Assembly: GCA_965204085.1 (NCBI GenBank)
Contig: CBDBEE010000003.1
Coordinates: 387,240 to 451,239 of the forward strand
DNA: 64,000 bases
From: Candidatus Poribacteria bacterium
GTDB lineage: Bacteria > Poribacteria > WGA-4E > JAJDTR01
Reading direction: 5' to 3'
The position numbers were made by a program, and so were the translations under genes. Each line of letters starts with the position of its first letter. The first letter of the stretch is position 1. Below, in pieces: positions 31,349 through 55,937 of this stretch. Under the pieces are notes generated by a model. It saw nothing but the letters and a program-made list of their open reading frames with translations, was not told the origin of the DNA and made no database searches.

Positions 31349-31443
31349 CGGTCATATTCTCCTTTTTCGGGTTCTACGCTTTTAGACTATTCTCTAAATC
31401 CCGGCAATGCTGTGTTTGGGTGTCGCCACCGAGTTCATTGACA

Positions 31444-39700: not shown

Positions 39701-42700
39701 GCAGCAACCGCTTGCCGATCTGCCCGTATGCCATGCCAATCTTTATACGTGTATCCGGTTCGGAATAGACAAGCGCGATCGGCTCGGTGGCGGACACGCC
39801 CTGCTGCTGCCACGGTTTGGACATCCCGTATTTTTCCGGCGGGCTATCGCTTAAACCGTCAAACACTTGCAACTCGCGCAGCGTGCGCAGGTACCGCTGA
39901 TCGACGAGGTCGTAAATGGTAGTGGACACACACGGGAAAACGATGACGCGGCAGCCTCGTCGCCGGTTTTGGATCCGAAGTTTATTGGATGTGAGTTTGG
40001 CGCCGAAGTTGCCCAAATCCGGGGCATACACGATGTCGCCGGAGTCGGAGTCAAGGAGGTAGGCATCAACCTCTTGCAACCCGCCAATGCGGTGAGTTGC
40101 TCGTCCCTCCATCGCCAGACCCGGCACATCAAACTGAGCTTTGTTGTTGCCCATGGCGATGAGGTCGCCGCGAACACCCATCATGGTCTTGTGCTTGCGT
40201 CGTATAGCGACGATAGGATAGGGCACCGGCGTGTTAGGTAGCGCGCTCTCCCGGGCGTCGTATTCGACGACATCGCCGAACAAATTGCAGTAGAAGTTAC
40301 TCACCTTGGCGCCGGTGGGCATTTTCGGATCGAGCATGGCTTGGATGAGGATGCCGGTCAGCGATTTTACCTGCCTGTGAAGATTGCCGTCATACGTGAG
40401 ATCCATTCTGTCAATCGTGTCCAACGGTGTGTCAGTCAGCAGCCGCCCGTCTTCGATCGTGGCGAACGTAACGCCGGTCTTACCTATCAACGTGGCAACC
40501 TCGCTGTCAAAAGCAATCTTTCCCGGGATGTAGGTTCGCCACGTTTTGGCGCCGGTGGCACCGATAGCGTTGACGAAGTTCGTTTCGCCTCCCAGCCCGA
40601 CGATGTCGATTAACGTTTGGATATCTTCAATCTCGTCCGGGCTTAGTTGAGAAGGATCCTCATGACGCAGGGCAAGCATCATCGGCAGCCGATTGAGGAG
40701 TCGAATCGTGTTCTTGCGGGTTCGCTGCGCCTCGCGTAGGTCGTCTTGGATAAACCGTTCCACTTCGTTGCGGATGTATTCCATGTCTTTCAGCATCTCT
40801 TCCGAGGGCTCGCCGCGCGTCTGCATCTGCTCAAACTGCATCTTCATCAGGCGGGAGACATCGGTCAGCGCAACCAACGATTCGTAGTGGTCGGAAATCA
40901 GGGTCTCCAGAGACTTTCCTTCAATTTCTTTCTTCGTCTCTATCTCGAAAGCGGCTTCCCATTGGCTGTTCATGACCGCCTGACGAATTTGGTCATCGGT
41001 AAAACTCCAGAGCTTGCCGATGCGCACGCCGAAGTCGACGTCGTTGGCGTACTGCATGAGCTTGTTGCCAATGGGGGCAAACTCTCGCCGCAGCACAAAC
41101 TCGGGTTGCTGGTCGTAGAACCAGCCCTTGTTGAACACGGCGAATTTGTCGCTCTGCGTGGAGAGGTCAACCGAGATAAATAGGGAGGTGTAGTAGCGGT
41201 TGAAAAGGTCTTGAAGGGAGATGGCTTGCTCAACGGCGGCGATATTACGGTCATATTCCGATTTGCTGAATCGGGCGAGAATTGCAACGCGGGATTGGAT
41301 GTTGCGAATACGCGAGTTTCGGAGAGTAAGCATGTTGTCGCGGAGAAGGATTTTTATGTCGTCCGGAAAGTCGCGGTCAAAGTTGTCCAGTCCGTTCCTC
41401 AAGTTCTGAAGCTCGACAATATCCTCGCGCGCTTTCTGTTTGACAAACCGGAGCAGCCTGCGTTCTTCAAGGTGGGCAGCTATCTGTTCGCGCGCTTCGA
41501 TTGCGGCTTCCGCTTCGTCATTCTCAAGGTAGTGACGCAACACGAGTATCTCTTCTTCAAAGTACGGACGATTCAGCGAAGCGTGCCAATCATCCTCCAG
41601 CAGGGATTCCAGCCGCTTGCGCTCAAGCCGCGCGTTCCGCATGGCAATCTCAAAGATTCCCTGCTTGTCCTTCGTCAACTCCTCAATAAGGACGGCATGG
41701 GATTCCTTTATCACCCCGCCGCCGGCTGTTTCGTGAACATTCGCCACCTTCTGGCGCAGTTGCGTCTGGATCCCCTTCAACCGACTCATTATGGCTCTAC
41801 TCAGAAAAGGTGCGAATATCCCGTCGACATCATCAGGCATGTAGTCGCGTTGGGTGCGCAACCGGCTTATGCTCGTCTTGATGGGTGACTCAAAATCCGC
41901 ATCCGAAGAAATTCTTTGAAGCGCGTTCTCAAGCTGAAGTTTTTCTTGAGCAATATAGTCGTCCAAACTCCTGTTCGCCTGCCTGGCGCGATCCACAACC
42001 TTGCGCGCGTCCTTCATCGCCTTCAGACCGTGGAAATCCAAGTGTCGATCTAGCACGCGCTCTTGGGCGTATTGGAGCGCAAATTTACGAGAATCGGAAA
42101 ACTCCCAATCCGCCAAATAGTCGGACAGTAGTTTCAAATCCGAGGCTACAGATGTTCCAATGAGATTAGACGGAATTGGGAGATGATAGGCGTCATCTTC
42201 ACCTTTTTCCGGAATGAGGTATGAATCACCCGGCTGCCGTCCGTAGCTTCCACCGACGCGCCCGGCATTCAAATCGGCTTCCAACTGTTCCAACACCCAC
42301 GCGTCCAACCGTGCCATGGGTAGCGCAACGTTTTCAATTAGTTCCAATTGCGCTTCTCGGCACGCCGTCAACGCCATGATCTGGAGGTCATGCATGCGGT
42401 CAACGACCATGCGCAAGAATTGGGTTGTCTGCAGCGCATCTTTCTTGAATTTTGCGAGATTGGTCTCAAGCGTGGATTTTTCCTCCAGCGTATAGCCCTG
42501 CTTCTCGCGTTTTTTCACGACGCGGCGGCGTCTTTTCTGCTTCTCTTTGAAATCTCGTTGTTTGTTGCGCAGCGAGTTGATTCGGTTGTACGTTTTCCCG
42601 ACATCGGATACAGTGGATTTCAGTGACAGAATGGCATCGTCAAGCTGGTGGATTTCGTAGAAGAATTCGGGAGGCAGATCGACGAGCACACTACGGTCAA

Positions 42701-44468
42701 TCGAGAGCAGCAGTTTACGACTCAATTCCTTGAACGGACGGAGATCCAGTCCCAGCCCTTTTGCCATCCCTCCCATGGTTGGAATCCCGGGCGCTTCGCC
42801 CGAGTTGATGTTGAAGTCCGCCCTCGCGATTATATCTTGTCCAATTCCGAACATAAAGAATCGCATACCGGCAAGCCCCTGGAAGTGCCCGTCCGTCGCG
42901 ACAAAAAGCATGGAGCGTCCGGGACGGTATTCCTCTTTGCTGAGGATTCGCGCCACCTCCAAAAGCGCCGCGATTCCGCTTGTAGGATCGGCGCCGGGGG
43001 CAAGTGACGGGACGACCGACATGGAGTCGTAGTAGGCGGTAACGACAACCATCTCGTCTTTCAGAATCGGGTCGCTGCCTTCAAGGAATCCGCGGATGTT
43101 TTGGCCAATTCGGCGTTCCCACGTCATGGTAGAATTCAACCGAACCATTAACGGCTCTGATTTGGAATTCCGATCTGCGTTTCCTGCCTCGGATTCGCCT
43201 AGAAGATTAAGTAACAGATCCGCATCCGTCCTTGAAATCCAGAATCGAGGGATGTTCGCAGGCACCGTCAAGAATTTGTTTTCGGCTTCACCGCGAATAG
43301 TGGTTTCGGGTTCAATAAACACCACAGCTTTCGCGCCAAGCATGGCAGCATTTATCCATTGCGTGCTGGAATTGAAATCTACCAGCAGAACGCTTCCGCG
43401 CGGAATGAAGAGACTGGACTCCGATGCGGCAATAAACTCACCGTCCTCATCAATTAGACCGTCGTTGTTGTTGTCAACGCCATCGTAGGCATTGCCGGGC
43501 GTTTCGTCAACATACCCGTCAGCATCGTTATCAATACCGTCACTGTCCCAATAGACGATGTCGGCAAGCAACGGGATTTCGCCGTATTCGTCAATTTCGC
43601 CGTCTTCGTTGTTGTCAATGCCGTCTTCGGTTTTCTGTAGGTGGCTATTGAGCACATCGTCGGTGATACTCCCCACGGTAACACGATGCCTGTGAGCGAT
43701 GTCTTCAAGCGTATCGCCCCTCTGAACGGCGTACCAGAATCCGCCGATATCTTTGCCGTTGAAGTCCTCCAGATTGGCGTCACCCCCGTAAAAGAGTGGG
43801 GCGCGAAGACCACCGGTGGGAACGAATACCGTGCTGCTCGTCGTTAACGCCACCTCGCCGGGTTCGTCGATTTCGCCATCCCTGTCGTTATCCTGTCCAT
43901 CAGCGGCTTGATTTTGCAGATATTGATTATGGGAATCCTCAAGAATGGATCGAGGCTCTACCTGATATGACTTGGCAATGGATTCGACGGTTTCGCCATC
44001 TTGCACGAGGTGCTTGATCCCGGTGGGCAGCAGTGAGGTACGAATGAGGTTGGGCCACACGGGCCATATCTTTATGGTTCTGAGCACCTCATCGTTTGAG
44101 GAAAGCACCTCCAGTCTTCCGTCGCCGTGGTCAACGGGAACGGCGATCCGAAATTCGCGGCTCTCGACGTTCTGTAAGCCGGTCTCGACGAACCGATCGA
44201 AGACGTACTTACTTGCGGCAGTCGCTTCGGGATAGCCTGTGACCCGACTCTCCAGACTGGAGAGCCGCGCGATATCCTTTCGCATTCTACCGACATCAAC
44301 CTCATCCCGAATCTTGACCGCGATTTCAGAGAGACCGACGGTTGTATCCCTTTCCGCAGTCAGAGGCGTGGATGTCATGATCAGTGCGATGAGACAAACC
44401 CATAGAATATGGAGACTCCTATTCTTGATTGCAATTCGACATTTATCTTTGTTTTTGAGATTGTTCAT
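36792..44468 (-). CDS. giant (2558 aa) membrane protein: N-terminal signal anchor, LysM-like repeats with Asp-rich Ca-binding-like repeats, an M28-peptidase-like domain, about 1000 aa of coiled coil, and FtsX/MacB-type permease modules at the C-terminus
   Basis: One uninterrupted ORF starting at ATG 44468. The tandem segments VQDGETVESIAKSY…/VQRGDTLEDIAHRH… are each followed by D-x-D-x-DG-x-ID-E repeats. VVVTAYYDSMSVVPSLAPGADPTSGIAALLEVARIL resembles the M28 signature HxDS…APGAxDxxSG. The C-terminal block (RKRKGRTILTCATLVILTFTVISF, a ~500-aa periplasmic insert, then GAVYERIREISIYSSVGLAPVHIAFLFLAEACVYAIVGAVLGYLLG) is a clear FtsX-like permease domain. No Walker A motif occurs anywhere in the protein. 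Confidence 0.8.
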   Translation of the reverse strand: MNNLKNKDKCRIAIKNRSLHILWVCLIALIMTSTPLTAERDTTVGLSEIAVKIRDEVDVGRMRKDIARLSSLESRVTGYPEATAASKYVFDRFVETGLQNVESREFRIAVPVDHGDGRLEVLSSNDEVLRTIKIWPVWPNLIRTSLLPTGIKHLVQDGETVESIAKSYQVEPRSILEDSHNQYLQNQAADGQDNDRDGEIDEPGEVALTTSSTVFVPTGGLRAPLFYGGDANLEDFNGKDIGGFWYAVQRGDTLEDIAHRHRVTVGSITDDVLNSHLQKTEDGIDNNEDGEIDEYGEIPLLADIVYWDSDGIDNDADGYVDETPGNAYDGVDNNNDGLIDEDGEFIAASESSLFIPRGSVLLVDFNSSTQWINAAMLGAKAVVFIEPETTIRGEAENKFLTVPANIPRFWISRTDADLLLNLLGESEAGNADRNSKSEPLMVRLNSTMTWERRIGQNIRGFLEGSDPILKDEMVVVTAYYDSMSVVPSLAPGADPTSGIAALLEVARILSKEEYRPGRSMLFVATDGHFQGLAGMRFFMFGIGQDIIARADFNINSGEAPGIPTMGGMAKGLGLDLRPFKELSRKLLLSIDRSVLVDLPPEFFYEIHQLDDAILSLKSTVSDVGKTYNRINSLRNKQRDFKEKQKRRRRVVKKREKQGYTLEEKSTLETNLAKFKKDALQTTQFLRMVVDRMHDLQIMALTACREAQLELIENVALPMARLDAWVLEQLEADLNAGRVGGSYGRQPGDSYLIPEKGEDDAYHLPIPSNLIGTSVASDLKLLSDYLADWEFSDSRKFALQYAQERVLDRHLDFHGLKAMKDARKVVDRARQANRSLDDYIAQEKLQLENALQRISSDADFESPIKTSISRLRTQRDYMPDDVDGIFAPFLSRAIMSRLKGIQTQLRQKVANVHETAGGGVIKESHAVLIEELTKDKQGIFEIAMRNARLERKRLESLLEDDWHASLNRPYFEEEILVLRHYLENDEAEAAIEAREQIAAHLEERRLLRFVKQKAREDIVELQNLRNGLDNFDRDFPDDIKILLRDNMLTLRNSRIRNIQSRVAILARFSKSEYDRNIAAVEQAISLQDLFNRYYTSLFISVDLSTQSDKFAVFNKGWFYDQQPEFVLRREFAPIGNKLMQYANDVDFGVRIGKLWSFTDDQIRQAVMNSQWEAAFEIETKKEIEGKSLETLISDHYESLVALTDVSRLMKMQFEQMQTRGEPSEEMLKDMEYIRNEVERFIQDDLREAQRTRKNTIRLLNRLPMMLALRHEDPSQLSPDEIEDIQTLIDIVGLGGETNFVNAIGATGAKTWRTYIPGKIAFDSEVATLIGKTGVTFATIEDGRLLTDTPLDTIDRMDLTYDGNLHRQVKSLTGILIQAMLDPKMPTGAKVSNFYCNLFGDVVEYDARESALPNTPVPYPIVAIRRKHKTMMGVRGDLIAMGNNKAQFDVPGLAMEGRATHRIGGLQEVDAYLLDSDSGDIVYAPDLGNFGAKLTSNKLRIQNRRRGCRVIVFPCVSTTIYDLVDQRYLRTLRELQVFDGLSDSPPEKYGMSKPWQQQGVSATEPIALVYSEPDTRIKIGMAYGQIGKRLLLIKAGKSGAKNPALYTGSGFVVRENGSIRVTPYVVVRDMWWLDENRTSLYKRFGISSDRLDQLHFYAHEHLDQAETALAKKEYSTAMKLARAAWGYESRAYPDVKKTGNDVVNGVMFYLALLLPFSYFMERLIFASPDVHKRIGGAAGIFILVFFFLAQVHPAFQITTTPVIILIAFVVLVLTVFVIAIILRKFEEQLEKIRQESSKVYKADVGRLAASAAAFSLGVSNMRKRKGRTILTCATLVILTFTVISFTSVRTFMHPNKTNLPAVTPRYTGMLIRDQYWRPLEAPVISSIMNDLRKTQLPEPDFRMMLKRRGTPSEEIEDTIAQLSEAGTLASVSAEPTFLFSMDSELQDEFAKGEISASLNHEFDRRGFLLAPQTSIQPVTDEERWEITGNRSTYTVRKDGDELKVYQPSSMLTVHNAVGPRAWYQSSGTGDQSFIELRRTSNVKDPVPPEDALTGQPYTFSANMLVGMSAAEPRITGINRYLYYGKWFDPADEEEWPTRWPYACVLPKGVADLLGIVEADMGKATVSVYGADFTVTGVLGIGFKDLTDNDGEELTPIDHQLMKQQSSRGAQGNQSSTSELQKYIHLTPDSVAILPYQVIINQGGTLRSVAVNMEPQPEDPPVPGAVDKLDLIMAPLMSRIALDFFVARDKNTYLYSSIGMTSFSGMGNLFIPILIASLIVLNTMLGAVYERIREISIYSSVGLAPVHIAFLFLAEACVYAIVGAVLGYLLGQVVATLLVNFGWLSGLTLNYSSMSTVVATIIVMIVVVGSTLYPAIKASRMAVPDLERKWKLPEPTGDEWHFNLPFTVLSEEALGLNIFMRDYFDAHADESASDFYTNQVAFARFMEESGDREQESYAVSMMVWLAPYDLGVSQAIRFVTSPVGGEEEELYQIKLDITRESGEIASWKRVNRRFLNLIRKQLLIWRTLSPDVRGEFHERGRQEDDESEETASPELAPQPAD

Positions 44469-45543: not shown

Positions 45544-48500
45544 CTATTTGACAACTACCATCCGGCGCATTTGCGAATAATCTCCCGCGCGGAATTGATA
45601 GAAATAAACACCGCTTGCTGCTGATTCTCCGTTCTCGTTACAACCGTCCCAATATGCGGCGCGTGCCCTATTCGTGTAAAATCCCGCCGGTTGGCGCCTC
45701 AAATCTAGCAGCCGAACCAATGCTCCTTTTGCGTCGTAAATCGAAATTTGGACATCGGAATCGCTAGCGAGGTGATACGGTATCCAAGTCTCCGGATTAA
45801 ACGGATTCGGGTAGTTGGGGTACAGCGCCGTCTCTTGTGGAATCAGCGAGGCTAACAGATTTTGAAGATTTGCAATGCCCTGCCGATAAGCAATCGAACC
45901 GTCGTCTTCAAGCCGCGCCTTGGCAATCCAGGCTTCTATTGTTGCAGCATCCACGTTTTCCGTCGCAATCGCAGGTGCGGCGGACTCGGTGGTATCTCCA
46001 ATTCTTTGTGCCGTGAAGGTGAGATCGAGGATGTTAACCACGCCGTCGCGGTTGACATCCGCCGGCGAGTTGGGAGACACGCTTTGCCCCAACTGCTGAG
46101 CAACGAGAATCAGATCGAGAATGCTGACAACCCCATCGCGGTTCACATCTCCGGTCGCCAATCGTCCCTTCACAGTGAAGCGGATTTCATGCGGTCCTGC
46201 AGCGATATTTTCCCCGATGCTAGATCCGAACTGGAAATTATCAAGCGCCAATACCGTTTCACCGCTGGTTTTCGCTTTGAGCTTCACCTGAAGCAGCGAG
46301 CCGGTGCCAGTGACTCCCCGGTTGCCCAGTAGTGCAGCACCGAGACCCGCGATCTTACCCGCAGCATTGTCAATGCTCCCAGTCCGAAAGAAGGTCGCTC
46401 CGCCATCCGACTCCAAGAAATCGCCTTCACTCACGTCAATCGCTTCGAATATGGCAGGGTCGAAGACAATGTCGAGCTGCCACCCCGCCAGATCGGAGAC
46501 ATTCTCCGCCCGGATATTGAAAGTAAAGGTATCGCCGTTGTGAATTGGCATCTTAGAAAAGGCATAGCTAACGCCAGTTACCACCGTATATTCGGTGCTC
46601 GGTTCAAACCCAAACAAGGCACCGGTTTCAGATCCGGGCGAGAAAACGGCGACTAATAACACATTCCTGCCTTGCTGCAGCGTGACCGGGAAAAAATCGT
46701 TGTACTCAAGTTCCATCGCTCTGTCACCCAACGCCTCGTAGACCAGTTCCCCGTTGAGCCAAACCTTTAGTCCTTCATCGTTGCCGACATACATGGTTGT
46801 TTTCTGTTCGCGCGGCGAATAGAGGGAGACAAACCCGTAAGTAACACCATGTTCACGTACAGCGCCCTTTAACATATTTCCGATATTGTGTCGATCCGTA
46901 GACGGGAGTTGGTCGAATCTCCACACGTTATCCCCGATAGGTTTTCCCACTGTCGCGCCATTGGTAGCAATTTTCTTCTCCGTCTCCTTGCCTTCAGTGG
47001 CTTCCGAGAGTAAATCAATGTCACGCTCCAGTCTTACGTCCGGCAACACGACCCATAACCAGGGACCCTCTATTTTCGTACCCCCTTTCGGGAACCCCGG
47101 ATTGATGTGCCAAACGAGTTTTGTATTCTTGAGAAGGCCGCCCAAAGGCGAAAAGTCGGAGATTTCGTTCTGGTTTACCGCCAGCCATTTCAGGTTGGTT
47201 AAGCCTGCAAGCGGCGATATATCGGATATGTCGTTGTGTTCAAGACTCAGACGATTTAGCCCGGTCAACCCCGCAAGAGGTGATATGTCCGAGATCCCGT
47301 TCCCTCTAAGATACAACTCTTTTAGGCTGGTCAGACTCGCCAAAGGCGAAAGGTCTGATAGCTTTGCGCCGCAAATGTCTAACCTATCCAGTTTTGGTAA
47401 CCCCGTTAGAGGTGATAAATCGGAGAAAGGGTTGCCCCACGTGTGGATGAATGTCAGGTTGCTTAGTCCTGCAAGCCCCGATATGTCGGATATGGTATCA
47501 TTGGAAAAAGCTAAGAACTCCAAACTAATTAGTCCGGCAACCGGCGATAGGTCGGATACGTTAGTATCGGCAATAACTAATTCTTTCAAATTGGTTAACC
47601 CTTCAAGGGTCGACAGGTCGGATATGTTGGTACCGGCAATATCCAAACGCCTCAGATTGATTGATCCCGCAAGCGGCGACAGGTCGGATAAATCGCCGTG
47701 AACCTCCACAAAATCCAGGTTCGTTAAGCCTGTCAAGGGTGATAAATCGGATACCCGGCTGTTATCAAGTTCTAAACGGGTAAGGCTTGTTGCAAATTGC
47801 AATCCTGTCAAATCGTAGACACGTCTATCATGCGAAAGTAGCCGTCTCACCCTCGCCAGTTCCTCCACGGTAATTGGGGCATTGGAGCTTTTGCCAAGTT
47901 CCTCCGCAATCATTGTGCGCAGAATCGGATCCGGGACATGGACATGTCTACCCGGTACTACATCGGGCTGTGTTTCAACAGAAGGCTCTTCTACGAGCTG
48001 CGGGTAATCCAGCGCAGAAATTACGTCTCGGAAACTTGATGTCCAAGTGTCGCGTTTCACACTCCCGTTCTCATTATCTAACGCCAGCAATCCTACGTTC
48101 TGAAGTCCCGTATTTTCACGAATCTTTTTGAGGAAGGTTTCGGTTTCTAACCCAACCACCGCAGCTGCGTATGCTGCGTCCACCGGTCCCTGAAACGCCT
48201 CATGGAAACGTGAAACCGGTTCAACTCCGCCAAACACACCGCCGGTGGCTGCAAGCGCTTTTCTATAGCGTTCCATGTCATCGCCCACAAGAGCGTCCAT
48301 CTCGGATTTCTCAACGTAGAGTCGCAGCGCCTGCGCTTTGTTGTAGGGTGGATTGGGATTGCTCTCAATCACGGAACGCACCTCGTCTTCAAAGGTTTTC
48401 ATGCCTTCCGTGTGGCAGCCGATACAGGAGATTCCGTTGCGCACCGTCGGGTCGCTGGCAGCAGGGTTGGAAACGATGTTAATCGGGGCATCATTCAATC

Positions 48501-49674
48501 GGAAACCGGAGGCATTGACAAGGTAGTATCCCTGCAACCCGTTCGGCAGATGGAAGATAACCTCTCCCCCATCATGCGTAAAATTTAGCGGGTGAGTGAG
48601 GATGTTCTGTGTCCCCACACTCCCGGAAAAGTCGTAGCTTTTCCAATACCCCCCATAGCGAGAGGTATGTCGTTCCACCACTCGGTTGTTCGTGGAGACG
48701 CCCGAATTGTTGAACCCCGCCCGCCACACACGAACCCCTGGCGCATTCACCAGATTGCGGGTGACATCGACCTCCAGTCGAGTCTCTAACTCCCTATCAG
48801 TGAATGGCAGCGAAAGTAGGTCGTGATATAGTGGCGGAGTAGATGCGGTTGCAATAAACCAGTCGACATGGACTGACGGTATTTCGGTCTTCATCTGTGA
48901 CTGTAACCGACCGAGTTGTTCCCGCAGGGCGGTCTGTTCGGGTGCATCAAATGCGATATGGTAGGGATATTCCGCTTCTATTTTCGTCCAGCCGTCGTTG
49001 ACGTCCCATTCGTAGTGCCGTAGGTCGATATGGAAGACAGTGGCTTGGGGGTCGATGGGCTGCGGGTTGGTAATCCCACTTCCCCATGAAAGGCTGTTGA
49101 CCAGTTTGTTGAGCGCTTTGCGGTACTCGGCAAGTATCGCGGGTGTCTCGCCCGCGTTATAGAGATGGGTTAGAGTGAAGTAGCGTGCAAAGGCGCGGTC
49201 AAACGGTTCGAGTGAGGTGAGATGTTCCTCAATGGTATCGAGTAATTCTTCGGGAGGGATGAACCGGCTATCGGTGATGCGCGCTGTCGACCATTCGGGG
49301 GCACCGGCTAATATCCAACGTCGAATCGTGTCAATCGACTGGTCGGACAGGGGGAGTTGTCCGAGTGGCATTCGTGCGCCGCCGTTTTCAGCGGTTCCGA
49401 GCAAGCGCCTGTACAACTCGGATTCATCGGGACTTCCCGGAACCACCGTGCCCTTCTCAATGAGCGTGGAATGCTCTATGAGGAGTGTCTCTCGATACGA
49501 GCCATCGGGGCCATGGCAGTTAAAGCAACTTCGCTCAAAGATGGCGTAAGCATCCTGAGCTAGCTGCTGTTGAGCAGAGACATTTTGAACACCTGCGGAG
49601 AGTGTCCATAAACCAATGAAGACGATACAATGTCGAGCAAAAATCAAATCGATTATGAAGAGACGTTTTAACAT
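45544..49674 (-). CDS. large secreted multidomain protein: PSCyt1 (CxxCH) and PSCyt2/DUF1549-like (CxxCH) heme-motif domains, internalin-like LRR, beta-sandwich, cohesin-like domain, two dockerin repeats, and a T9SS C-terminal sorting domain
   Basis: An ATG at 49674 gives MLKRLFIIDLIFARHCIVFIGLWTLSAGVQNVSAQ (signal peptide); the track ORF begins earlier at 49722. SCFNCHGPDG matches PSCyt1. RNGISCIGCHTEGMK matches the DUF1549/PSCyt2 type. There are about 14 22-residue repeats LxxLxxLxxLxLxxNxISDISPL. AGWQLDIVFDPAIFEAIDVSEGDF is cohesin-like. GDVNRDGVVSILDL appears twice (dockerin). The last ~90 aa, YPNYPNPFNPETWIPYHL…ISIYDAKGALVRLLDL…AYWDGCNENGE…SGVYFYQF…MVVVK, match the T9SS CTD (TIGR04183-type). 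Confidence 0.8.
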   Translation of the reverse strand: MLKRLFIIDLIFARHCIVFIGLWTLSAGVQNVSAQQQLAQDAYAIFERSCFNCHGPDGSYRETLLIEHSTLIEKGTVVPGSPDESELYRRLLGTAENGGARMPLGQLPLSDQSIDTIRRWILAGAPEWSTARITDSRFIPPEELLDTIEEHLTSLEPFDRAFARYFTLTHLYNAGETPAILAEYRKALNKLVNSLSWGSGITNPQPIDPQATVFHIDLRHYEWDVNDGWTKIEAEYPYHIAFDAPEQTALREQLGRLQSQMKTEIPSVHVDWFIATASTPPLYHDLLSLPFTDRELETRLEVDVTRNLVNAPGVRVWRAGFNNSGVSTNNRVVERHTSRYGGYWKSYDFSGSVGTQNILTHPLNFTHDGGEVIFHLPNGLQGYYLVNASGFRLNDAPINIVSNPAASDPTVRNGISCIGCHTEGMKTFEDEVRSVIESNPNPPYNKAQALRLYVEKSEMDALVGDDMERYRKALAATGGVFGGVEPVSRFHEAFQGPVDAAYAAAVVGLETETFLKKIRENTGLQNVGLLALDNENGSVKRDTWTSSFRDVISALDYPQLVEEPSVETQPDVVPGRHVHVPDPILRTMIAEELGKSSNAPITVEELARVRRLLSHDRRVYDLTGLQFATSLTRLELDNSRVSDLSPLTGLTNLDFVEVHGDLSDLSPLAGSINLRRLDIAGTNISDLSTLEGLTNLKELVIADTNVSDLSPVAGLISLEFLAFSNDTISDISGLAGLSNLTFIHTWGNPFSDLSPLTGLPKLDRLDICGAKLSDLSPLASLTSLKELYLRGNGISDISPLAGLTGLNRLSLEHNDISDISPLAGLTNLKWLAVNQNEISDFSPLGGLLKNTKLVWHINPGFPKGGTKIEGPWLWVVLPDVRLERDIDLLSEATEGKETEKKIATNGATVGKPIGDNVWRFDQLPSTDRHNIGNMLKGAVREHGVTYGFVSLYSPREQKTTMYVGNDEGLKVWLNGELVYEALGDRAMELEYNDFFPVTLQQGRNVLLVAVFSPGSETGALFGFEPSTEYTVVTGVSYAFSKMPIHNGDTFTFNIRAENVSDLAGWQLDIVFDPAIFEAIDVSEGDFLESDGGATFFRTGSIDNAAGKIAGLGAALLGNRGVTGTGSLLQVKLKAKTSGETVLALDNFQFGSSIGENIAAGPHEIRFTVKGRLATGDVNRDGVVSILDLILVAQQLGQSVSPNSPADVNRDGVVNILDLTFTAQRIGDTTESAAPAIATENVDAATIEAWIAKARLEDDGSIAYRQGIANLQNLLASLIPQETALYPNYPNPFNPETWIPYHLASDSDVQISIYDAKGALVRLLDLRRQPAGFYTNRARAAYWDGCNENGESAASGVYFYQFRAGDYSQMRRMVVVK

Positions 49675-49867
49675 GGGAAATATCTCCCAATTACAATCTT
49701 CCGGAAACACCCGGCCCAGCAACCGCTTCGCCTCTACTCTTGTAGGAGCGATCCCCAGGTCGCGACATCAAGGCGAATCGCATCAAAATTCCGTCAATTG
49801 CGTGCGAGTTTTCGTCCCGAATTCCGTTATTGCACGCATTCCAAAAAGCAAATTCTAGGTCACACTA

Positions 49868-50500
49868 TCAGACATCCTCTCTTTCGGACGTTGGCTCTCG
49901 CTCATCGGATTTGACGCTAGCGAGCATAACCGGTTTCGTCTCGGGAACCCTTTCCCTTTCTGTCCCGCCGAATTCCGCCACCAATATCGCTTTGGTAAGT
50001 TGTTCGAGTGCTTCATTTGTAATCTGCAGGCTGTTCTCCGAGCTATTTGCCTCAACGGGCTCGGGAGCTACTGCCTCCGATGCGCGCTGCAGTAATCTTT
50101 CATGAGCCGTCCCAACCTCCTGCGTTAGCTTCGATAACTTGAACACATGCTCCATCGTATCCGACAACTTGGTATATTCCGCCCCGTCGCTTTCCTGGAT
50201 AGAATCCGTCAGTTTACTCACATAGTTGCGCATTATCCCAGCCACTTTGGTTTCGATATCCAACCAGTTGTCGTTCGCGATGCGCGCTTTGTCAAGTCTT
50301 TCCTGCGCGAGTTCATCCTCCGTCGGCTGATGCCAATCGTATTGCTTCGCCCAACGGCGGATGGTGTTTGCATTTACCTGAACGGGGAGTTGGCGGCTGA
50401 TTTCGGTAGCGGGCACTCCTTGCAGCCACAGCTTCTTCGCTTCAGCTATCACTTTTTCGGGTGTTTTCGGTTTTCTTCGCGGCGCGATGGCGTTTTTCAT
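49868..50500 (-). CDS. helix-turn-helix DNA-binding protein; the N-terminus resembles phage terminase small subunits or transposase helix-turn-helix domains
   Basis: PKTPEKVIAEAKKLWLQGVPATEISRQLPVQVNANTIRRW has an HTH-like pattern, followed by an acidic coiled-coil C-terminus. No other phage or IS genes are nearby. Confidence 0.35.
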   Translation of the reverse strand: MKNAIAPRRKPKTPEKVIAEAKKLWLQGVPATEISRQLPVQVNANTIRRWAKQYDWHQPTEDELAQERLDKARIANDNWLDIETKVAGIMRNYVSKLTDSIQESDGAEYTKLSDTMEHVFKLSKLTQEVGTAHERLLQRASEAVAPEPVEANSSENSLQITNEALEQLTKAILVAEFGGTERERVPETKPVMLASVKSDEREPTSEREDV

Positions 50501-50639
50501 GTGATATGTGCCTCATTAGACATCATCGGGCTGGACGCTAAACTACATGCACTAGGTACTACAGAAGAGTGTAGGTTGATAGCACCCCATTATCCTGTCG
50601 GAATAATTCTTTCAGCAAGCAACACGTTTTAGTCGGAGT

Positions 50640-50965
50640 CCCTTTCCTCGATCCAGAGGATCGAAATGTCAATAGAATACGATGTGTCCAGATTTCCGCG
50701 CTCCAGAGGAGCGCAATGTGTCATGCATCATAAATTGACCCTCGTTTTTCGCTCTATGACTGGCTTCGATCGAGTGTTACTTGCTGAATGACTAGCCGTG
50801 AAAAGCGTTCCTTCGTGGTCTGGTTTTCACTCCAGCGGAGTGCTATGTCAATAGAATCGCGATGCGTCTAATCTCCGCGCTCCAGCGGAGCGCAATGTGT
50901 ATAGCGCATCATCAAATGACACTGATTCTGCTCTATAGCTGGCTTTGAAAAAGTGTTGCTTGATA
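50640..50965. repeat. two tandem copies of a ~180-bp unit, each carrying paired short hairpins (GATCCAGAGGATC…CGCTCCAGAGGAGCG-CAATGTG)
   Basis: The period is about 179 bp (50651 vs 50830). An inverted copy lies at 57850..58090. Confidence 0.75.
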
Positions 50966-50967
50966 GG

Positions 50968-51000
50968 GAAAACCGAGTATTCGACGGAATACTCGGTTTC
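50968..51000. terminator. 14-bp hairpin, GAAAACCGAGTATTC-GACG-GAATACTCGGTTTC, about 100 nt downstream of the LamG-like gene stop
   Basis: The palindrome is visible in the sequence. It belongs to the same AACCGAG/CTCGGTT stem family as 26413 and 57692. There is no U-tract. Confidence 0.3.
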
Positions 51001-51097
51001 TACACAAACGATGGTGGGCAATATGAGGGCAATCGACGATTTCATAATCACCGATTGTACCCTACAAGAATAGATGGAGCGAGCACGGCTTCAACAA

Positions 51098-51970
51098 TTA
51101 GAATCCACGTTTCAGTTTTCCCCACGTGGTGGACACTTTGCCCGATGGATCGACCGCGAACGAGCCGCGCACATTCTGGTTAATCTCATCTTCACTGAAA
51201 GCCCGGTCGTAGACGCGGTAGATGGCGATTGAGCAGTTGCAGGTGCGCACCTCTTCGGCGCGGCTATGAGAGAAGATAGCGTGCAGCGACATATCATGCT
51301 TCTTATTCCATTTTACACTTGGCCCCGTTCTTCCGACTTTTTCGCCGTCAACATAGGATGTGAAATTCTTCCCGCTCTCAAACACCATGTGTACCCAGTG
51401 CCACTCCTGTTCGCCGACCCTCAATCCGTGAGTTCCTTTGGGCCAGTCGTCGCGCAAGCCTAGCGCGCCTTGAGCAATGCTTATGTTCGCAAAATCTCCG
51501 TTCCCGCCGGCATCCAGCCAAATCCGAAAGTTCTGAACCGTTTCCCTTGGTTGCGCCTGTATTCCGACGAGATGATGTTCCTGCGCAAGCATGGGTCCAT
51601 TTATCCTCATAAGCAGCCCCATGGTGAAGTCTTCAAGGTTCACGACGGGTGTTTTGGCTCCCGGCGCTGCGTTGCTGAAGGTCATACCCGATGCGTCGGC
51701 GGTGTACCACTTCGTGTCTTCCTTGAAACCGATACCTTTAATCGAGATGACGCCCTCTTCGAGTTTAGGCTTGAGCTTACTATGCTCCAATTCTCCGCCC
51801 GCCTCGCCGGCGTTTCGCCAGACTTTATCCCTGTCGGTTTGATCGGTTTCGGCAGGGTTAAAGTATAGCACCGCTCCGGGGATCGGCTGAGCGAGTGCCG
51901 TTGAAAGTGTCATCGCCATACCAACCAATACAATAAAAATGGCGATGGGATAAATTGTGTTTCTTGTCAT
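51098..51970 (-). CDS. secreted concanavalin-A-like (LamG-type) lectin/glucanase-fold protein carrying the same C-terminal tail as the PD40 family
   Basis: ATG at 51970 with a signal peptide (IAIFIVLVGMAMTLSTALAQ). WHWVHMVFESGKNFTSYVDGEKVG is LamG-like. The C-terminus is …FAVDPSGKVSTTWGKLKRGF. Confidence 0.55.
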   Translation of the reverse strand: MTRNTIYPIAIFIVLVGMAMTLSTALAQPIPGAVLYFNPAETDQTDRDKVWRNAGEAGGELEHSKLKPKLEEGVISIKGIGFKEDTKWYTADASGMTFSNAAPGAKTPVVNLEDFTMGLLMRINGPMLAQEHHLVGIQAQPRETVQNFRIWLDAGGNGDFANISIAQGALGLRDDWPKGTHGLRVGEQEWHWVHMVFESGKNFTSYVDGEKVGRTGPSVKWNKKHDMSLHAIFSHSRAEEVRTCNCSIAIYRVYDRAFSEDEINQNVRGSFAVDPSGKVSTTWGKLKRGF

Positions 51971-52174
51971 GCTTCTGTCCTCCGTATCAATCTAATTGGT
52001 CTTGCAAAAGAAACTAATGGCCAAATTGGCGATTTCCATAATCCTAAAATTTTACAACATAACGCTACGAAATACAAGGTTTAAGCGCAAAGCAGTGACT
52101 TGTGGCCTTTGGCTATACTATGCGTTGGGTATTATTGCGCTTTCTTTCCCGGTAATTACTGTTTGTAATAGTGA

Positions 52175-52281
52175 TTGTAGGGTGGGCACTGCCCACCATC
52201 AACGCGGTCACGTTGCGCGCCCGGGGGAGCCAGCCATTTATCCCAAACTGATCGGAATGGTGGGCAGTGCCCACCCTACAA
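52175..52281. repeat. REPIN-like inverted doublet: TTGTAGGGTGGGCACTGCCCACC…(61-bp spacer)…GGTGGGCAGTGCCCACCCTACAA
   Basis: The two REPs lie in opposite orientation within the divergent intergenic region between 51970 and 52537. A third degenerate copy is at 52341-52358. Confidence 0.7.
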
Positions 52282-52536
52282 CTACTTTTAAAGGTTGGTG
52301 CGCAGGGGATTTCTATCGCCCGCGCTATCCGCTTGGTTGATCGCACCCTACAAATGTACTTTTCAAACAGGTTCTGAGGGGCTCAATAATGCGGAAGACA
52401 AGTTTGAATTTCGCATTTATTTGACGCGAACCCTGTTTTCTGTTATGCTAACCCTTGTCATTTTTCCAGCGTAATTTCCAATTATATGTACCGCAGCATG
52501 AACGAATCGCATCACCCAAAGGAGGGTATATTCCCG

Positions 52537-53799
52537 ATGTCTCTAGATGAGCGCGCGGATCTCTTTAACCGAACAGTGTTGGACGATGCAATGGATGAAT
52601 ACGGTCTGATACGCCACACCCTAACCTATCCCGATCGAAAACCGATACCCGACGAACTACTGGAAGATGTCCGAGAAAACACCGAACAACGCAAGCGATT
52701 AGGTCAGAAGTGGCATCCCCATGCCGGTACGCCGGCGTATGCCATGTACGAAGACGCCAACTATGTCGGCAACCGTTACCTGTTGTCTCAGGCGTGGCGC
52801 TGGTTGGCGACGAAGAACGAAACCGCCCGGAGCGACGCCGAGAAGGCGTATAACGCCACGATGTATCCCTATCACGAAGGACGAAAGATGGATCCCGGTT
52901 ATTGGCCCAAACCTTACGGTGCGCTGAAGGGAGACTACACCATCGATAAGGTGTACACCGAGACCAGTTTGGATCAGGCATACTCTCCCGTCATCGCGCT
53001 CTGGCGGTACTACCAGCATTTGGCAAGCGACGATGAGAAACTGGCAATCGCCAAAGCCGTGCAGGAGCATGGGCACTGGTGGATTCGGCACGAATACACC
53101 TACGACTACTTGGGCGAGGTGTGGAAGGTGTTCGAAGGTCGGATTGGCAGTCCCAGCAGCGCTTTGAAAATCCCTATCGGCATGCACATCGCCTATCGGA
53201 TCACCGGCGACACGGCGTTGTTGGACGAGTGTATGCGCATCATTAGGCAGGCTGTAAACGAAGGCGCGTTGTCGATGCACCGGGGACCACGCGGCGAGAT
53301 TAAGGAACTGTATCACTGGGCGGAAATGTACGACTATTTCATGCGCGAAACCGATTTGCAGGACGAAGCCGAATGGGAGCGTCTCATCCGCGAGTGCTGG
53401 CGCGCCGGAAAGAGCGCCGTTCAGGAGGATGGGCTGTGTATCGGTCAGGGGTTCTTCACCGACGATGGGCTGCTGGAGAAGTACGAACCCGGTCCCGCGG
53501 ACGACGTGCACCACGGCTACTGGAAGACCGACGCCGGACACCCCGCCTCCACCGCGCAAATTGCCGGTTTGGCGATGCTCATCCACGAATTGGGTTACGA
53601 CGATGACGCCGCGGATGTCGGGGTGAAGTTACTGGAGAACGTCACCGAAGCCCACACCGGGAAAAATTATCTCTACACCAGCGCCGAACAGATGCCCCCC
53701 GAATCACGCGAAAAGCCGCCGCAGGAATTCTTCCACACCCGCACCGTCGTGTTCTGGCTGGATGCCTACTGGCGCGGCAAGCTGCACGGCGTATTGTAA
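52537..53799 (+). CDS. hypothetical protein (about 420 aa), possibly an (alpha/alpha)6-barrel glycoside-hydrolase-like fold
   Basis: An ATG at 52537 lies 10 nt after an AGGAGGG Shine-Dalgarno sequence; the track begins at 52486. The protein is rich in W and Y with no clear motifs. Confidence 0.45.
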   Translation: MSLDERADLFNRTVLDDAMDEYGLIRHTLTYPDRKPIPDELLEDVRENTEQRKRLGQKWHPHAGTPAYAMYEDANYVGNRYLLSQAWRWLATKNETARSDAEKAYNATMYPYHEGRKMDPGYWPKPYGALKGDYTIDKVYTETSLDQAYSPVIALWRYYQHLASDDEKLAIAKAVQEHGHWWIRHEYTYDYLGEVWKVFEGRIGSPSSALKIPIGMHIAYRITGDTALLDECMRIIRQAVNEGALSMHRGPRGEIKELYHWAEMYDYFMRETDLQDEAEWERLIRECWRAGKSAVQEDGLCIGQGFFTDDGLLEKYEPGPADDVHHGYWKTDAGHPASTAQIAGLAMLIHELGYDDDAADVGVKLLENVTEAHTGKNYLYTSAEQMPPESREKPPQEFFHTRTVVFWLDAYWRGKLHGVL

Positions 53800-53909
53800 G
53801 GACGGCTACGAACCCGATTTCACACAGGGCGAATGGGGTGATTTTGGGAAGATGCGACGATTACGCATACCTGTACTGGGGAGACACCCATGATTAAAGG
53901 GAAAAATCA

Positions 53910-55937
53910 GTGAATTTCCTACAGAAAATCACACTCAGTCTTTTGCTCTATATCATTTTGGGCAGCGCTACGTTTGCCCAAGTCGTTGAGATACCCGACC
54001 CCAACTTGCGTGCCACCATCCGCAGTACTCTCAACCTCTCCGATGGTGTTCCTATCACACAAGCGGACATGCGGAAATTGACAGGGTTAGACGCACCTGA
54101 AAGCCGGATAACAAATCTCGCCGATATGGAATACGCCGTAAATTTGAAATCGCTAATCCTTTCCCACAACCACATCCGAGACATCACCCCCTTAGCCGGG
54201 TTGACAAAGTTGGTGGTATTGGCGGTCCATGATAATCCTATCCGAGACCTCACTCCAATTTCTGATATGACGCGATTGGACTATTTGGGTGTTAACGCTT
54301 GTCCCGTCTCCGATCTTCGTCCTTTGGCGACGCTTACGAGTTTGAGGCGATTCGACGCCATATACTGTGAGATAACCGACATCTCGCCAATTGCCAACCT
54401 CACACACCTCCACACGTTGCACTTAGAACACAATCAGATTGAAGATATAACCCCTCTCGCCGGTTTAACGGAGCTCCAGAAGTTGTATCTTGAGAATAAC
54501 CGTATTAAAGATTTAAGTCCACTCGTCGGGTTGATTAATCTTGAAATACTCCGGATCCACAATAACCTGTACACCGATACGTCTCCGCTTTCGGGGTTGA
54601 CCGTACCAGATTTGCAAATGGACGAAGAGTGCGACATGCCGAGATTGTCGGTTCGGGACAGACTGGCAAATCGCAACCTACCCTCTATCCCTCTCACTTG
54701 GCATGACGGCATATTCAACAGAGGCGGTGATTGGTGGGACCTTTCGATACCCTATCGGGAGCGCGTCGCATATCATGATATATGGTGGCATATTAACCTA
54801 TTCGACACAGAGTTCAAGTTGACACCGCAAGGGTACCGAATAACGGGTAACTTGCAGAATTCGATGAACCTGCGCGAGGAATTCCTCGCCCACAATCCCA
54901 ACATGCTATTTATCGCCGATGTTCGACAGTATTATGCACCCTTAGGAGGGCGTTTCCCGGAAGATTGGATAGGTTGGCTTCGCGACGAAAACGGCGATCA
55001 TATCTTTTTTGAATATCAGTATGAGGGTTTGATGATAGAACAGGCGATAATCGATTATGCCTCACCCGAAGTTCAAGATATCATCGTTCAACGGGCATTA
55101 GCTGTTTCACAATGCGGCTTGTTTGACGGCATCATATACGACCATTGGGGCGGCAACGACTACTCCATTCTCCGTAGGATACGCGAAAACGTGCCGGACG
55201 ATTTCCTTATCGTGGTCAATACCAACGAAAGAGTTATTCCGGGGTTAATCCCTTACATCAACGGCGCGTTCATGGAAACCTTCCCAATCGATCGGAAGAA
55301 AGGTTATACTCGCGATCGGATCATCGAGATAGAGGAAGTCCTCGTCTGGTACGAATCAAACGCATTGGAACCGAAAATCAACTGTTTGAGAGGACTCGGC
55401 ATTGGGACTGAGCCGCCGGACAGTCCCGCCAACCAACGATGGATGCGGCTCTTTACGACCATGAGTTTAACCTTGTCCGACGGGTATACTCTGTATAGCA
55501 TTGGCGATGTTGGAGGACAAGAGCACTTCCACAAACACATCTGGCACCCGTTCTGGGATGCCGATCTGGGGCAAGCCGTTGGTCCGATGGCTCAAAGTTA
55601 TCGAGGTATCGAGGGTGTGTATATCCGCGAGTTTACCAACGGATGGGCAGTCTACAACCGTAGCGGCGAGCCGCAGGTCATTACGCTGCCGGAGAAAGCG
55701 CAAGGCGTCGCCAGCGGCTTGGTGAACACGGAGCACGCCTTGCCGAATCTCGACGGGGAAATGTACTTGCGGGTTAAACAGAAGAATCCGGCGGACGTGA
55801 ATGGGGACGGGGTTGTGAACATTCTCGACTTGACAATTGTTGCGCAGGGGTTTGGCACGGATAGCAAGAAGGGGGATGTAAATGGCGATGGGCTTGTAAA
55901 CATTCTAGATTTGGTGTTTGTGGCGAATCAATTCTGA
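53910..55937 (+). CDS. secreted LRR protein with an uncharacterised central domain (~330 aa) and a C-terminal dockerin repeat pair
   Basis: GTG start at 53910 with a signal peptide. There are about 9 internalin-like LRRs (…IRDITPLAGLTKLVVL…). The C-terminus is DVNGDGVVNILDLTIVAQGF…GDVNGDGLVNILDLVFVANQF. Confidence 0.7.
   Translation: MNFLQKITLSLLLYIILGSATFAQVVEIPDPNLRATIRSTLNLSDGVPITQADMRKLTGLDAPESRITNLADMEYAVNLKSLILSHNHIRDITPLAGLTKLVVLAVHDNPIRDLTPISDMTRLDYLGVNACPVSDLRPLATLTSLRRFDAIYCEITDISPIANLTHLHTLHLEHNQIEDITPLAGLTELQKLYLENNRIKDLSPLVGLINLEILRIHNNLYTDTSPLSGLTVPDLQMDEECDMPRLSVRDRLANRNLPSIPLTWHDGIFNRGGDWWDLSIPYRERVAYHDIWWHINLFDTEFKLTPQGYRITGNLQNSMNLREEFLAHNPNMLFIADVRQYYAPLGGRFPEDWIGWLRDENGDHIFFEYQYEGLMIEQAIIDYASPEVQDIIVQRALAVSQCGLFDGIIYDHWGGNDYSILRRIRENVPDDFLIVVNTNERVIPGLIPYINGAFMETFPIDRKKGYTRDRIIEIEEVLVWYESNALEPKINCLRGLGIGTEPPDSPANQRWMRLFTTMSLTLSDGYTLYSIGDVGGQEHFHKHIWHPFWDADLGQAVGPMAQSYRGIEGVYIREFTNGWAVYNRSGEPQVITLPEKAQGVASGLVNTEHALPNLDGEMYLRVKQKNPADVNGDGVVNILDLTIVAQGFGTDSKKGDVNGDGLVNILDLVFVANQF

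Follow-up and report, generated by a model that had tools for sequence, protein, structure and literature searches.

What does a cohesin bind when a dockerin follows it in the same polypeptide and a second dockerin protein is encoded a few kilobases away? This question is raised by a 64,000-nucleotide stretch of DNA from Candidatus Poribacteria (assembly GCA_965204085.1, contig CBDBEE010000003.1, positions 387,240 to 451,239; the whole stretch is called the window here), which codes for two modular proteins that we name ProtA and ProtB. ProtA joins a dihaem module, leucine-rich repeats (LRRs), a variable β-sandwich, a cohesin, a dockerin and a C-terminal domain (CTD) like those of type IX secretion system (T9SS) cargo; ProtB joins LRRs, a barrel domain and a dockerin. 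Each is one member of an expanded family, specific to Poribacteria, of modular proteins predicted to be exported by Sec. A preliminary description of the window had suggested that the ProtA cohesin could pair with the ProtB dockerin. The best explanation as a whole, to which we give a probability of about 0.6, is a different one: the ProtA cohesin is matched to a dockerin of its own class, either as a clasp within one molecule or in chains of molecules, in an exported dihaem-LRR-CTD protein, and ProtB docks elsewhere.

The modules themselves, as first described, are well supported. Pfam Cohesin (PF00963) matches ProtA residues 1046-1147 at 40.9 bits (gathering threshold, GA, 24.1), and cohesins of known structure are found both with the single sequence (3l8q at 3.5e-5) and with the family profile (3l8q at 9e-7, 5g5d at 1.9e-6). 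In hhalign the domain matches multi-cohesin proteins of other Poribacteria at 97.1% (E 6e-11), and these proteins themselves score as cohesins at E 1e-29 to 1e-39. It had been asked whether the segment might model as some other β-sandwich; AlphaFold2 (AF2) gives residues 1033-1169 the cohesin strands, about nine of them (ten DSSP segments), at a predicted local distance difference test score (pLDDT) of ~85-95. A Foldseek run on the whole ProtA model was dominated by the LRRs, and the cohesin fold rests on the AF2 strands together with the profiles. Dockerin_1 (PF00404; GA 22.9) is found in both proteins, at 41.9 bits over residues 1175-1223 of ProtA, where 2y3n_B also matches (6.4e-8), and at 37.3 bits in ProtB. 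The repeats DVNRDGVVSILD and DVNRDGVVNILD of ProtA and DVNGDGVVNILD and DVNGDGLVNILD of ProtB carry D or N at loop positions 1, 3, 5 and 12. Two or three dockerin subclasses can be told apart in the Poribacteria set: the ProtA type has a 10-residue linker between its repeats and the endings …VAQQLG/…VAQGIG, then G-x-AAAP, whereas the ProtB type has a linker of 3-6 residues and a …VANAF helix. G-x-AAAP directly follows dockerin repeat 2 in the CTD-bearing dockerin proteins examined (the L020, L021, L030 and L060 equivalents); in the ProtA of this window it has diverged to …ESAAPA, in a region (residues 1226-1282, 45829..45999) that also takes in the helical spacer before the CTD.

The evidence on what the ProtA cohesin binds comes from covariation within the family. 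Mutual information with average product correction (MI-APC) was computed over 664 variable ProtA columns, some 220,000 pairs, and the three highest pairs of the whole protein all join cohesin to dockerin: 1148-1184 (1.30), 1154-1190 (1.10) and 1148-1182 (1.07). The next-best pair of any sort (0.92) links residues two positions apart, the 99.9th percentile at similar separation is 0.68, and the top pair between modules of any other kind reaches 0.49. Residues 1148 and 1184 combine without exception as L-N (42), E-S (30), Q-S (18), K-D (16), V-N (3) and Q-T (2); E1148 is accompanied by R1182 in 30 of 30 cases and K1148 by D1182 in 12 of 16. At 1154 and 1190 the combinations are G-L (74), E-R (18) and K-S (17), with two singletons, D-R and G-R. 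Charge-compensating swaps are among these, including K-D and E-R. The ProtA of this window has Q1148 in strand β8 and G1154 in the 8-9 loop, and V1182, S1184 and L1190 at positions 7, 9 and 15 of dockerin repeat 1. The code recurs, again with no exceptions, in a second set of 73 proteins encoded at 59 genomic loci, which shares some source genomes with the first set. Dockerin repeat 2 is nearly invariant and uncoupled from the cohesin. Thus, the β8/8-9 loop of the cohesin and dockerin repeat 1 are a co-evolved cognate pair, with at least four classes matched in charge or polarity.

Could such a code simply be inherited, through the phylogeny of subfamilies or with a recombining cassette? Nine variable columns lie between the coupled sites, at 1158-1174, and show essentially zero association with 1148; the coupling is therefore not that of a co-inherited block. 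When a neighbour-joining tree is built from the other parts of ProtA, residue 1148 needs 40 changes on it, 1184 needs 34 and their joint state 41, and nearest neighbours in the other ProtA modules share the 1148/1184 class only about 50% of the time. Given these ~40 joint switches, the low agreement between neighbours and the uncorrelated intervening columns, we rejected both causes. Furthermore, both of the chromosomes that were checked carry two classes. The covariation argues for a contact between cohesin and dockerin in ProtA, and as the two form co-evolved classes, with more than one class per genome, the ProtA cohesin probably engages a dockerin of its own class. The order of strands in the AF2 model puts 1148 on the penultimate strand, β8 (1138-1151), and 1154 in the 8-9 loop; in established cohesin structures β8 belongs to the 8-3-6-5 sheet that binds dockerin. 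The linker between the two modules, ~7 residues in ProtA, is of constant length in the family (no gaps across 1161-1200), and because it never varies a clasp within one molecule is mildly favoured over head-to-tail chains.

Where does this leave ProtB? The LRRs and the dockerin pair reported for it stand (LRR_4 at 103 bits), and the centre, for which no assignment had been offered, is a TIM barrel like those of GH114 and GHL15. GHL15 (PF14885) scores 29.0 bits (GA 27), and with the family profile two GH114 structures, 8rg5 and 8rg3, are found at E 6e-6 to 8e-6 (best 6.4e-6); searched against the PDB as a single sequence, the centre gave chance matches only, and the family profile was needed. 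The motifs DG(I/V)xxD and NGxFxE are invariant in the barrel (D171/D176 and E221 across 7 aligned members). Since the profile match and the invariant motifs coincide, ProtB may be regarded as a dockerin-tagged putative glycoside hydrolase. Its family has at least 120 full-length members at 41-87% identity, the three named ones being Candidatus Poribacteria, and a CTD follows the dockerin in ~17 of the 120 homologues listed.

In the preliminary description, ProtA was held to the outer membrane by its T9SS CTD and its cohesin captured the ProtB dockerin, giving a two-protein LRR scaffold. The cohesin and the dockerin that this calls for are both genuine, the genes lie only 4.2 kb apart, and ProtB-type genes occur within 10 kb of ProtA paralogues in four further loci (L042, L069, L072 and L076). 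We looked for an enrichment of ProtB-type genes beside ProtA paralogues, but the count (5 of 78 loci) is too weak to claim one without genome-wide counts; moreover, as both families are multi-copy, some proximity is expected by chance. The ProtA cohesin, however, is matched to its own dockerin, and that of ProtB is of a distinct subclass, with its short linker and VANAF helix. Repeat 1 of the ProtB dockerin reads V7/N9/I15, and in the ProtA code N9 occurs with L or V at 1148 alone: with Gln1148, the residue of this ProtA, it was found in 0 of 20 cases in the first set and 0 of 30 in the genomic-locus set. That the code extends to the ProtB subclass is something we infer by analogy. In addition, the two genes point away from each other, and between them lie three open reading frames (ORFs) unrelated to either, for a helix-turn-helix protein, a LamG protein and an unannotated protein of 437 residues, and ProtB has no CTD of its own. 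Such a two-protein scaffold therefore seems improbable to us. The most plausible receptors for ProtB are the separate, 'free' cohesins of scaffoldin-like proteins, some with a CTD, that are encoded in related genomes.

These came to light in a census with family hidden Markov models (HMMs), and then Pfam, over 1.8 Mb of loci related to ProtA. It returned proteins with two or three free cohesins, proteins combining a cohesin with a CTD, and dockerin-CTD combinations on Big_1×10, WD40 and LRR+Big_1 proteins. Four scaffoldin-like genes (2-3 cohesins, or cohesin and CTD) are neighbours of ProtA paralogues, at L007:14142-15770, L019:18689-20272, L057:2030-4099 and L007:3641-5401; the free cohesins share ~21% identity with that of ProtA. 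The wider idea of a cohesin/dockerin scaffold at the cell surface is in keeping with this toolkit of cohesins, dockerins and CTDs. It also invites a cellulosome-like reading, with free multi-cohesin scaffoldins, some of them CTD-anchored, gathering dockerin enzymes such as ProtB, and ProtA-type proteins serving as adaptor or substrate-targeting subunits. The scaffoldin-like genes beside ProtA paralogues suit it, as does the GH114-like barrel of ProtB with its conserved DGxxxD/NGxFxE motifs, and there is a precedent in the CTD-anchored cohesin scaffoldin proposed in Ca. Stygibacter (PMC8542988). However, most of the dockerins seen sit on repeat proteins without a catalytic domain (LRR, WD40, Big_1), the sole enzyme-like domain found is the GHL15/GH114-like one, with a score near threshold, and the HMM census placed no scaffoldin gene in the 64-kb window. 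The dihaem module would also be left unexplained. We regard this reading as possible, if doubtful.

The dihaem module occupies residues 35-560 of ProtA and is likely an extracytoplasmic redox enzyme or sensor. Its head (residues 39-121) matches PSCyt1 (PF07635) at 23.3 bits, or 25.6 bits on the isolated N-terminus (GA 22), and also matches Cytochrome_CBB3; 47 of 51 distant homologues of the module match PSCyt1, the best at 2.9e-17. PSCyt2 motifs, which had been reported alongside those of PSCyt1, could not be recovered: PF07583 gave no match at any threshold, nor did a search with the N-terminal 570 residues alone at E<=5. The haem-binding residues, to which attention had already been drawn, are highly conserved. 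All 134 full-length homologues have two CxxCH motifs, no more and no fewer (in ProtA CFNCH at residues 50-54 and CIGCH at 417-421), and C20/C23/H24/M72/P73 in alignment numbering, which are the first CxxCH and the pair M102-P103, are invariant in two alignments of family and distant members. Both motifs and the M102-P103 pair stay invariant down to ~40% identity, as do polar residues around the second motif. In class I cytochromes c the distal Met usually lies in such an M-P pair, and M102 is a candidate distal ligand of haem 1. With two invariant CxxCH motifs, a signal peptide and M102-P103 for haem 1, ProtA has the features of a c-type cytochrome, and covalent attachment of haem at both motifs can be inferred from them.

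Searching with the isolated module gave 6831 cluster representatives at E<=1e-3, 1575 of them at E<=1e-30, with distant relatives in Armatimonadota, Planctomycetota and Acidobacteriota. The spacing from one CxxCH to the other is ~355-387 residues in the distant relatives checked, mostly ~360-365. These relatives (P0244-P0246, P0270, P0290 and others) are fused to FGE-sulfatase, TPR, WD40, β-helix and TonB_C domains or to Ser/Thr kinases; in the kinase fusions a transmembrane helix precedes the first CxxCH by ~35-85 residues. From this set of fusions, and from its position behind a transmembrane helix downstream of a kinase, the module appears to be an extracytoplasmic unit combined with many partners. 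Its first ~100 residues resemble FoxE (5mab, 3.8e-8), cytochromes c552 and c6, CcoP and the cytochrome-c head of CTI. A link to fatty-acid cis/trans isomerase (PF06934) was considered and rejected, the likeness being limited to the cytochrome-c head and below GA.

The LRRs reported for both proteins are likewise clear. In ProtA LRR_4 reaches 107.8 bits in Pfam, with LRR_4/LRR_8 over residues ~600-860, and Foldseek matches the model to InlA, InlF and InlH in the PDB (E 1e-22 to 1e-20, 33-37% identity, target-normalised TM-score 0.5-0.77). Against the NCBIfam InlA model ProtA scores 159 bits, compared with a cut-off of 1600, which places it outside the class 1 internalins. In the 22-residue register the x positions of LxxLxLxxN average ~2.1 bits of entropy, versus ~1.0 for the scaffold positions. 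To judge from this register, the hypervariable positions are those of the predicted concave, ligand-binding face, diversified between paralogues. The β-sandwich that follows (865-1035) is all-β in the AF2 model and of high entropy; it has no relative in Pfam and none in the PDB even by profile search, and a faint similarity to BetaGal_ABD2 was seen in one paralogue only. Across the family (n=111) the N-terminal module (35-560) is the most conserved part, at 0.2-0.8 bits per column, the LRRs and this β-sandwich are the most variable, at 1.0-1.5 bits, and the cohesin, dockerin, spacer and CTD are intermediate. The AF2 model covers residues 31-1230 at a mean pLDDT of 91.2, with distant homologues in the alignment. 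In it the dihaem module is α/β, the LRRs form a solenoid, the next domain is all-β, and the cohesin is built of about nine strands and the dockerin of two helices; an earlier run of the N-terminal module, with close paralogues alone in the alignment, gave a pLDDT of 41.7 and was discarded. Antisense to the LRR region lies a 271-residue ORF (46886..47701, +), most likely an artefact of repetitive LRR codons.

The last 94 residues of ProtA had been described as a bona fide T9SS CTD. This stands in so far as the domain lies at the extreme C-terminus and exceeds the cut-off of TIGR04183, the T9SS type A sorting domain (27.6 bits, cut-off 23); it does not in so far as Pfam fits FlgD_ig better (33.8 bits, GA 27). 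In other Poribacteria the same CTD is carried by FG-GAP, HAF-repeat, Big_1, WD40 and LRR proteins, and every CTD protein tested passes TIGR04183 (25-37 bits). Between dockerin and CTD runs a helical spacer of ~45 residues, which the HMM census found in ProtA-type proteins only and which may be a stalk or a processing element.

Taken together, these modules suggest the following course for ProtA. The protein would be exported by Sec and then receive its haems in the periplasm, where c-type haem attachment takes place, and the CTD would carry it through the outer membrane. Contact between the cohesin and dockerin repeat 1, matched by class, would form either a clasp in cis, giving a rigid cohesin-dockerin (CohDoc) stalk, or class-specific head-to-tail chains. 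The invariant repeat 2 would stay free to dock a common cohesin, such as those of the free or CTD-bearing scaffoldins, to whose free cohesins, and not to ProtA, ProtB would dock as well. The variable LRR faces and the haem module would then be displayed outward at the surface of the symbiont.

Several observations weigh against this course of events. Covariation reveals coupling, not geometry, and the choice between cis and trans and the use of the 8-3-6-5 face would follow from strand order and from established cohesin structures. The remaining ~430 residues of the dihaem module, including the second CxxCH, have no Pfam or PDB relative. ProtB lacks a CTD, and a ProtB that stays in the periplasm could not join a surface complex. 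The CTD of ProtA scores 22.3 bits against Por_Secre_tail (PF18962), below the GA of 27. Finally, neither the window nor the 1.8 Mb of related loci, a sample too small to exclude a T9SS, yielded a SprA-sized ORF, a GldK-like ORF (FGE motif) or a PorU/PorZ body, and the wider hunt (NCBIfam on CTD-only proteins, a filter for β-barrel-like ORFs, and the related loci) returned matches to CTD portions only.

Might ProtA then never leave the periplasm? Poribacteria would on that account have no T9SS, the FlgD-Ig-like CTD would be merely a structural β-sandwich, and ProtA would be a periplasmic redox protein whose cohesin and dockerin form an intramolecular interface. Such an account draws on the low Por_Secre_tail score and the better fit of FlgD_ig, on the want of T9SS components in the sampled loci and on the literature, in which we found no paper reporting a T9SS in Poribacteria; the periplasmic site of c-type haem attachment and the fixed cohesin-dockerin linker agree with it too. 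However, the CTD is always at the extreme C-terminus, passes TIGR04183 and is common to many unrelated repeat proteins, and this is the pattern that marks a sorting signal. Hypervariable LRR faces, moreover, make most sense on an exposed protein. We consider confinement to the periplasm unlikely, and continue to prefer export of a class-matched ProtA. A bolder extension would make the ProtA family a self-assembling, diversified receptor coat of a sponge symbiont, in which orthogonal, charge-coded classes sort the nine or more paralogues of a cell into class-specific chains or lattices, the hypervariable LRRs serve as receptors in the manner of variable lymphocyte receptors or internalin repertoires, the distal domain with its covalently bound haems carries out redox reactions outside the cell or senses signals such as reactive oxygen species or nitric oxide where symbiont and host meet, and T9SS-like export operates outside the Fibrobacterota-Chlorobiota-Bacteroidota (FCB) group. 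This we offer as speculation with little probability.

How widely is this architecture spread? ProtA has more than 120 full-length homologues of the same architecture at 62-77% identity, and one at 99%; a scan of one genome per GTDB species placed its relatives at 288 loci. Of the best 77 ProtA-type loci, many on closed chromosomes of 4.7-6.9 Mb, all but one are titled Candidatus or uncultured Poribacteria, the other (L066) being an 'uncultured bacterium', and the named members of ProtA sequence clusters are Candidatus Poribacteria. Chromosome OZ242335.1 carries nine such loci, dispersed, and OZ242036.1 carries eight; tandem arrays occur too. Thus, the combination of cytochrome-like and cohesin modules, thought rare at first, has hundreds of copies within the phylum. 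Nor does the CTD give the organism the FCB flavour that had been suggested, as NCBI taxonomy places Candidatus Poribacteria among candidate phyla incertae sedis, outside the FCB group.

Set beside the type I and type II cellulosomes (C. thermocellum CipA/SdbA, A. cellulolyticus ScaB), the Poribacteria system has homologous modules, the same Ca2+-loop residues (D1/N3/D5/D12) and, like them, more than one cohesin class and dockerin subclass per organism. It differs in belonging to a Gram-negative candidate phylum, in a cargo of LRR, WD40, Big_1 and haem proteins rather than mainly cellulases, in the adjacent, co-evolving cohesin and dockerin that ProtA carries in one chain with a 7-residue linker, and in an anchor or export signal that is a T9SS-like CTD instead of an S-layer homology domain or sortase signal. 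Archaeoglobus fulgidus AF2375 also has cohesin and dockerin in one polypeptide, and self-association has been proposed for it; unlike such proteins, the ProtA family is massively expanded, comes in charge-swapped classes and sets the pair in a haem-LRR-CTD context. Peer et al. in 2009, a survey cited in PMC8542988, reportedly covered such non-cellulosomal proteins carrying cohesin and dockerin. In Ca. Stygibacter (Cloacimonadota), for which a CTD-bearing cohesin scaffoldin has been proposed (PMC8542988), cohesin and dockerin proteins and a T9SS-type CTD for surface attachment likewise occur in an uncultivated Gram-negative lineage. That system, however, is a classical scaffoldin with dockerin-enzymes in an FCB phylum, whereas Poribacteria lie outside the FCB group and their dominant proteins combine both modules with LRRs and haem.

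Comparisons can also be made for the other modules. ProtA shares with the T9SS type-A cargo of Bacteroidota a C-terminal β-sandwich of ~90 residues that matches TIGR04183, with YPNPF… and a terminal K/R-x-hydrophobic-K; it differs in that no T9SS machinery came to light in the Poribacteria loci sampled and in that FlgD_ig outscores Por_Secre_tail. With the Listeria internalins InlA, InlF and InlH it has in common the 22-residue LRR horseshoe and a variable concave face, but it lacks an LPXTG or GW anchor and the Ig-like inter-repeat domain, so that only the LRR fold is common to both. PSCyt1-headed proteins, among them PSCyt1/WD40 and PSCyt1/PSCyt2/PSD1 types, are known from Planctomycetota and Verrucomicrobiota in the Planctomycetes-Verrucomicrobia-Chlamydiae (PVC) superphylum (Kamneva 2012, PMC3542564). 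These and FoxE have the same PSCyt1-type head with CxxCH…MP, and those of the PVC bacteria are fused to protein-interaction repeats; ProtA, however, has no PSCyt2 or PSD1; in their place stands a domain of ~430 residues that lacks annotation and holds the second invariant CxxCH. Among the relatives examined, the dihaem module was joined to LRR-cohesin-dockerin-CTD only in Poribacteria.

Cohesins and dockerins outside cellulosomes, single proteins with both, a proposed CTD-anchored scaffoldin and PSCyt1/WD40 proteins were already known, and we found no paper linking Poribacteria with cohesin, dockerin or T9SS. New are the combination of dihaem module, hypervariable LRR, cohesin, dockerin and CTD, the expansion of this combination within a phylum of sponge symbionts that falls outside the FCB group, and the charge-coded co-evolution of the adjacent cohesin and dockerin. 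Eukaryote-like repeat proteins are the foremost candidates for the means by which sponges recognise and spare their symbionts, and ProtA gives a signature sponge phylum a testable display architecture (CTD with cohesin and dockerin) and a hypervariable LRR repertoire. For cohesin-dockerin biology, the natural charge-swapped series K-D, E-R, Q-S and L-N points to specificity residues, and the class pairs could supply orthogonal parts for designer assemblies. Of interest for secretion, a C-terminal domain of the T9SS type, probably a sorting domain, is widely used in Poribacteria, which are not counted among the FCB phyla. Furthermore, the dihaem module of ~520 residues is very widespread (thousands of clusters, with kinase, FGE-sulfatase, TPR and WD40 fusions) and without a family annotation.

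Features of ProtA and ProtB, with positions counted from the first letter of the window
Feature	Position	Strand	Basis
ProtA ORF	45544..49722	−	ORF listing and translation
ProtA gene, start ATG at 49674 (family consensus N-terminus), 1376 aa	45544..49674	−	Complete gene
ProtA Sec signal peptide, residues 1-34 (…NVSA/QQQ)	49573..49674	−	Sequence reading; N-terminus kept in family consensus
ProtA probable dihaem c-type cytochrome module, residues 35-560 (PSCyt1-type head and uncharacterised α/β domain)	47995..49572	−	
ProtA haem motif 1, C50-F-N-C53-H54	49513..49527	−	Invariant in alignments
ProtA haem motif 2, C417-I-G-C420-H421	48412..48426	−	Invariant, 134/134 family members
ProtA internalin-like LRR array, residues ~590-860, N-cap and ~12 repeats of 22 residues	47095..47907	−	
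ProtA variable β-sandwich of no known family, residues 865-1035	46570..47082	−	AF2, entropy
ProtA cohesin, residues 1036-1168	46171..46569	−	Pfam, PDB, hhalign, AF2
ProtA dockerin, residues 1172-1228, F-hand repeats DVNRDGVVSILD… and DVNRDGVVNILD…	45991..46161	−	Pfam, 2y3n_B, AF2
ProtA conserved helical spacer, residues 1238-1282	45829..45963	−	Family HMM census
ProtA T9SS type-A-like CTD, residues 1283-1376 (…YPNPFNPETW…GVYFYQF…MVVVK)	45547..45828	−	TIGR04183, FlgD_ig
ProtB, 675 aa: signal peptide, LRR, GH114/GHL15-like TIM barrel, C-terminal dockerin	53910..55937	+	
ProtB LRR domain, residues 25-240, N-cap motif IPDPNLR… as in ProtA	53982..54629	+	LRR_4 103 bits
ProtB glycoside-hydrolase-like TIM barrel, residues ~241-620	54630..55769	+	GHL15, GH114 profile match
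ProtB dockerin, residues 627-675, short-linker subclass DVNGDGVVNILDLTIVAQGFG…DVNGDGLVNILDLVFVANQF	55788..55934	+	Dockerin_1 37.3 bits

A six-frame motif scan of the window confined dockerin repeats and the CTD motif to these two genes, and the remaining CxxCH, at 8266, falls inside a thioredoxin-like protein. That protein (6149..8593, −; 814 residues) combines DsbH/thioredoxin, (α/α)6 glycoside-hydrolase-like and DsbD_N parts, and its CYWCH is the thioredoxin CxxC rather than a haem site. Immediately upstream of ProtB and in the same orientation, the intervening 437-residue ORF (52486..53799, +) lacks a signal peptide and matches nothing in Pfam or NCBIfam. Directly downstream of the ProtA region lies a gene for a 2558-residue protein with LysM, M28 peptidase and FtsX-like permease domains (36792..44468, −). 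The window also codes for WD40, C-type lectin, PD40 and LamG proteins, and the rest of it fits a sponge symbiont rich in eukaryote-like proteins. At 13277..21177 (−) two CarboxypepD_reg and C-type-lectin proteins alternate with two WD40-repeat proteins of ~660 residues in a eukaryote-like cluster. Finally, six tandem PD40/TolB-like β-propeller paralogues with signal peptides, in two interleaved subfamilies, occupy 29240..36093 (−); two of them, at 29240-30199 and 32720-33679, share 96.6% identity, a sign of recent duplication or of gene conversion.

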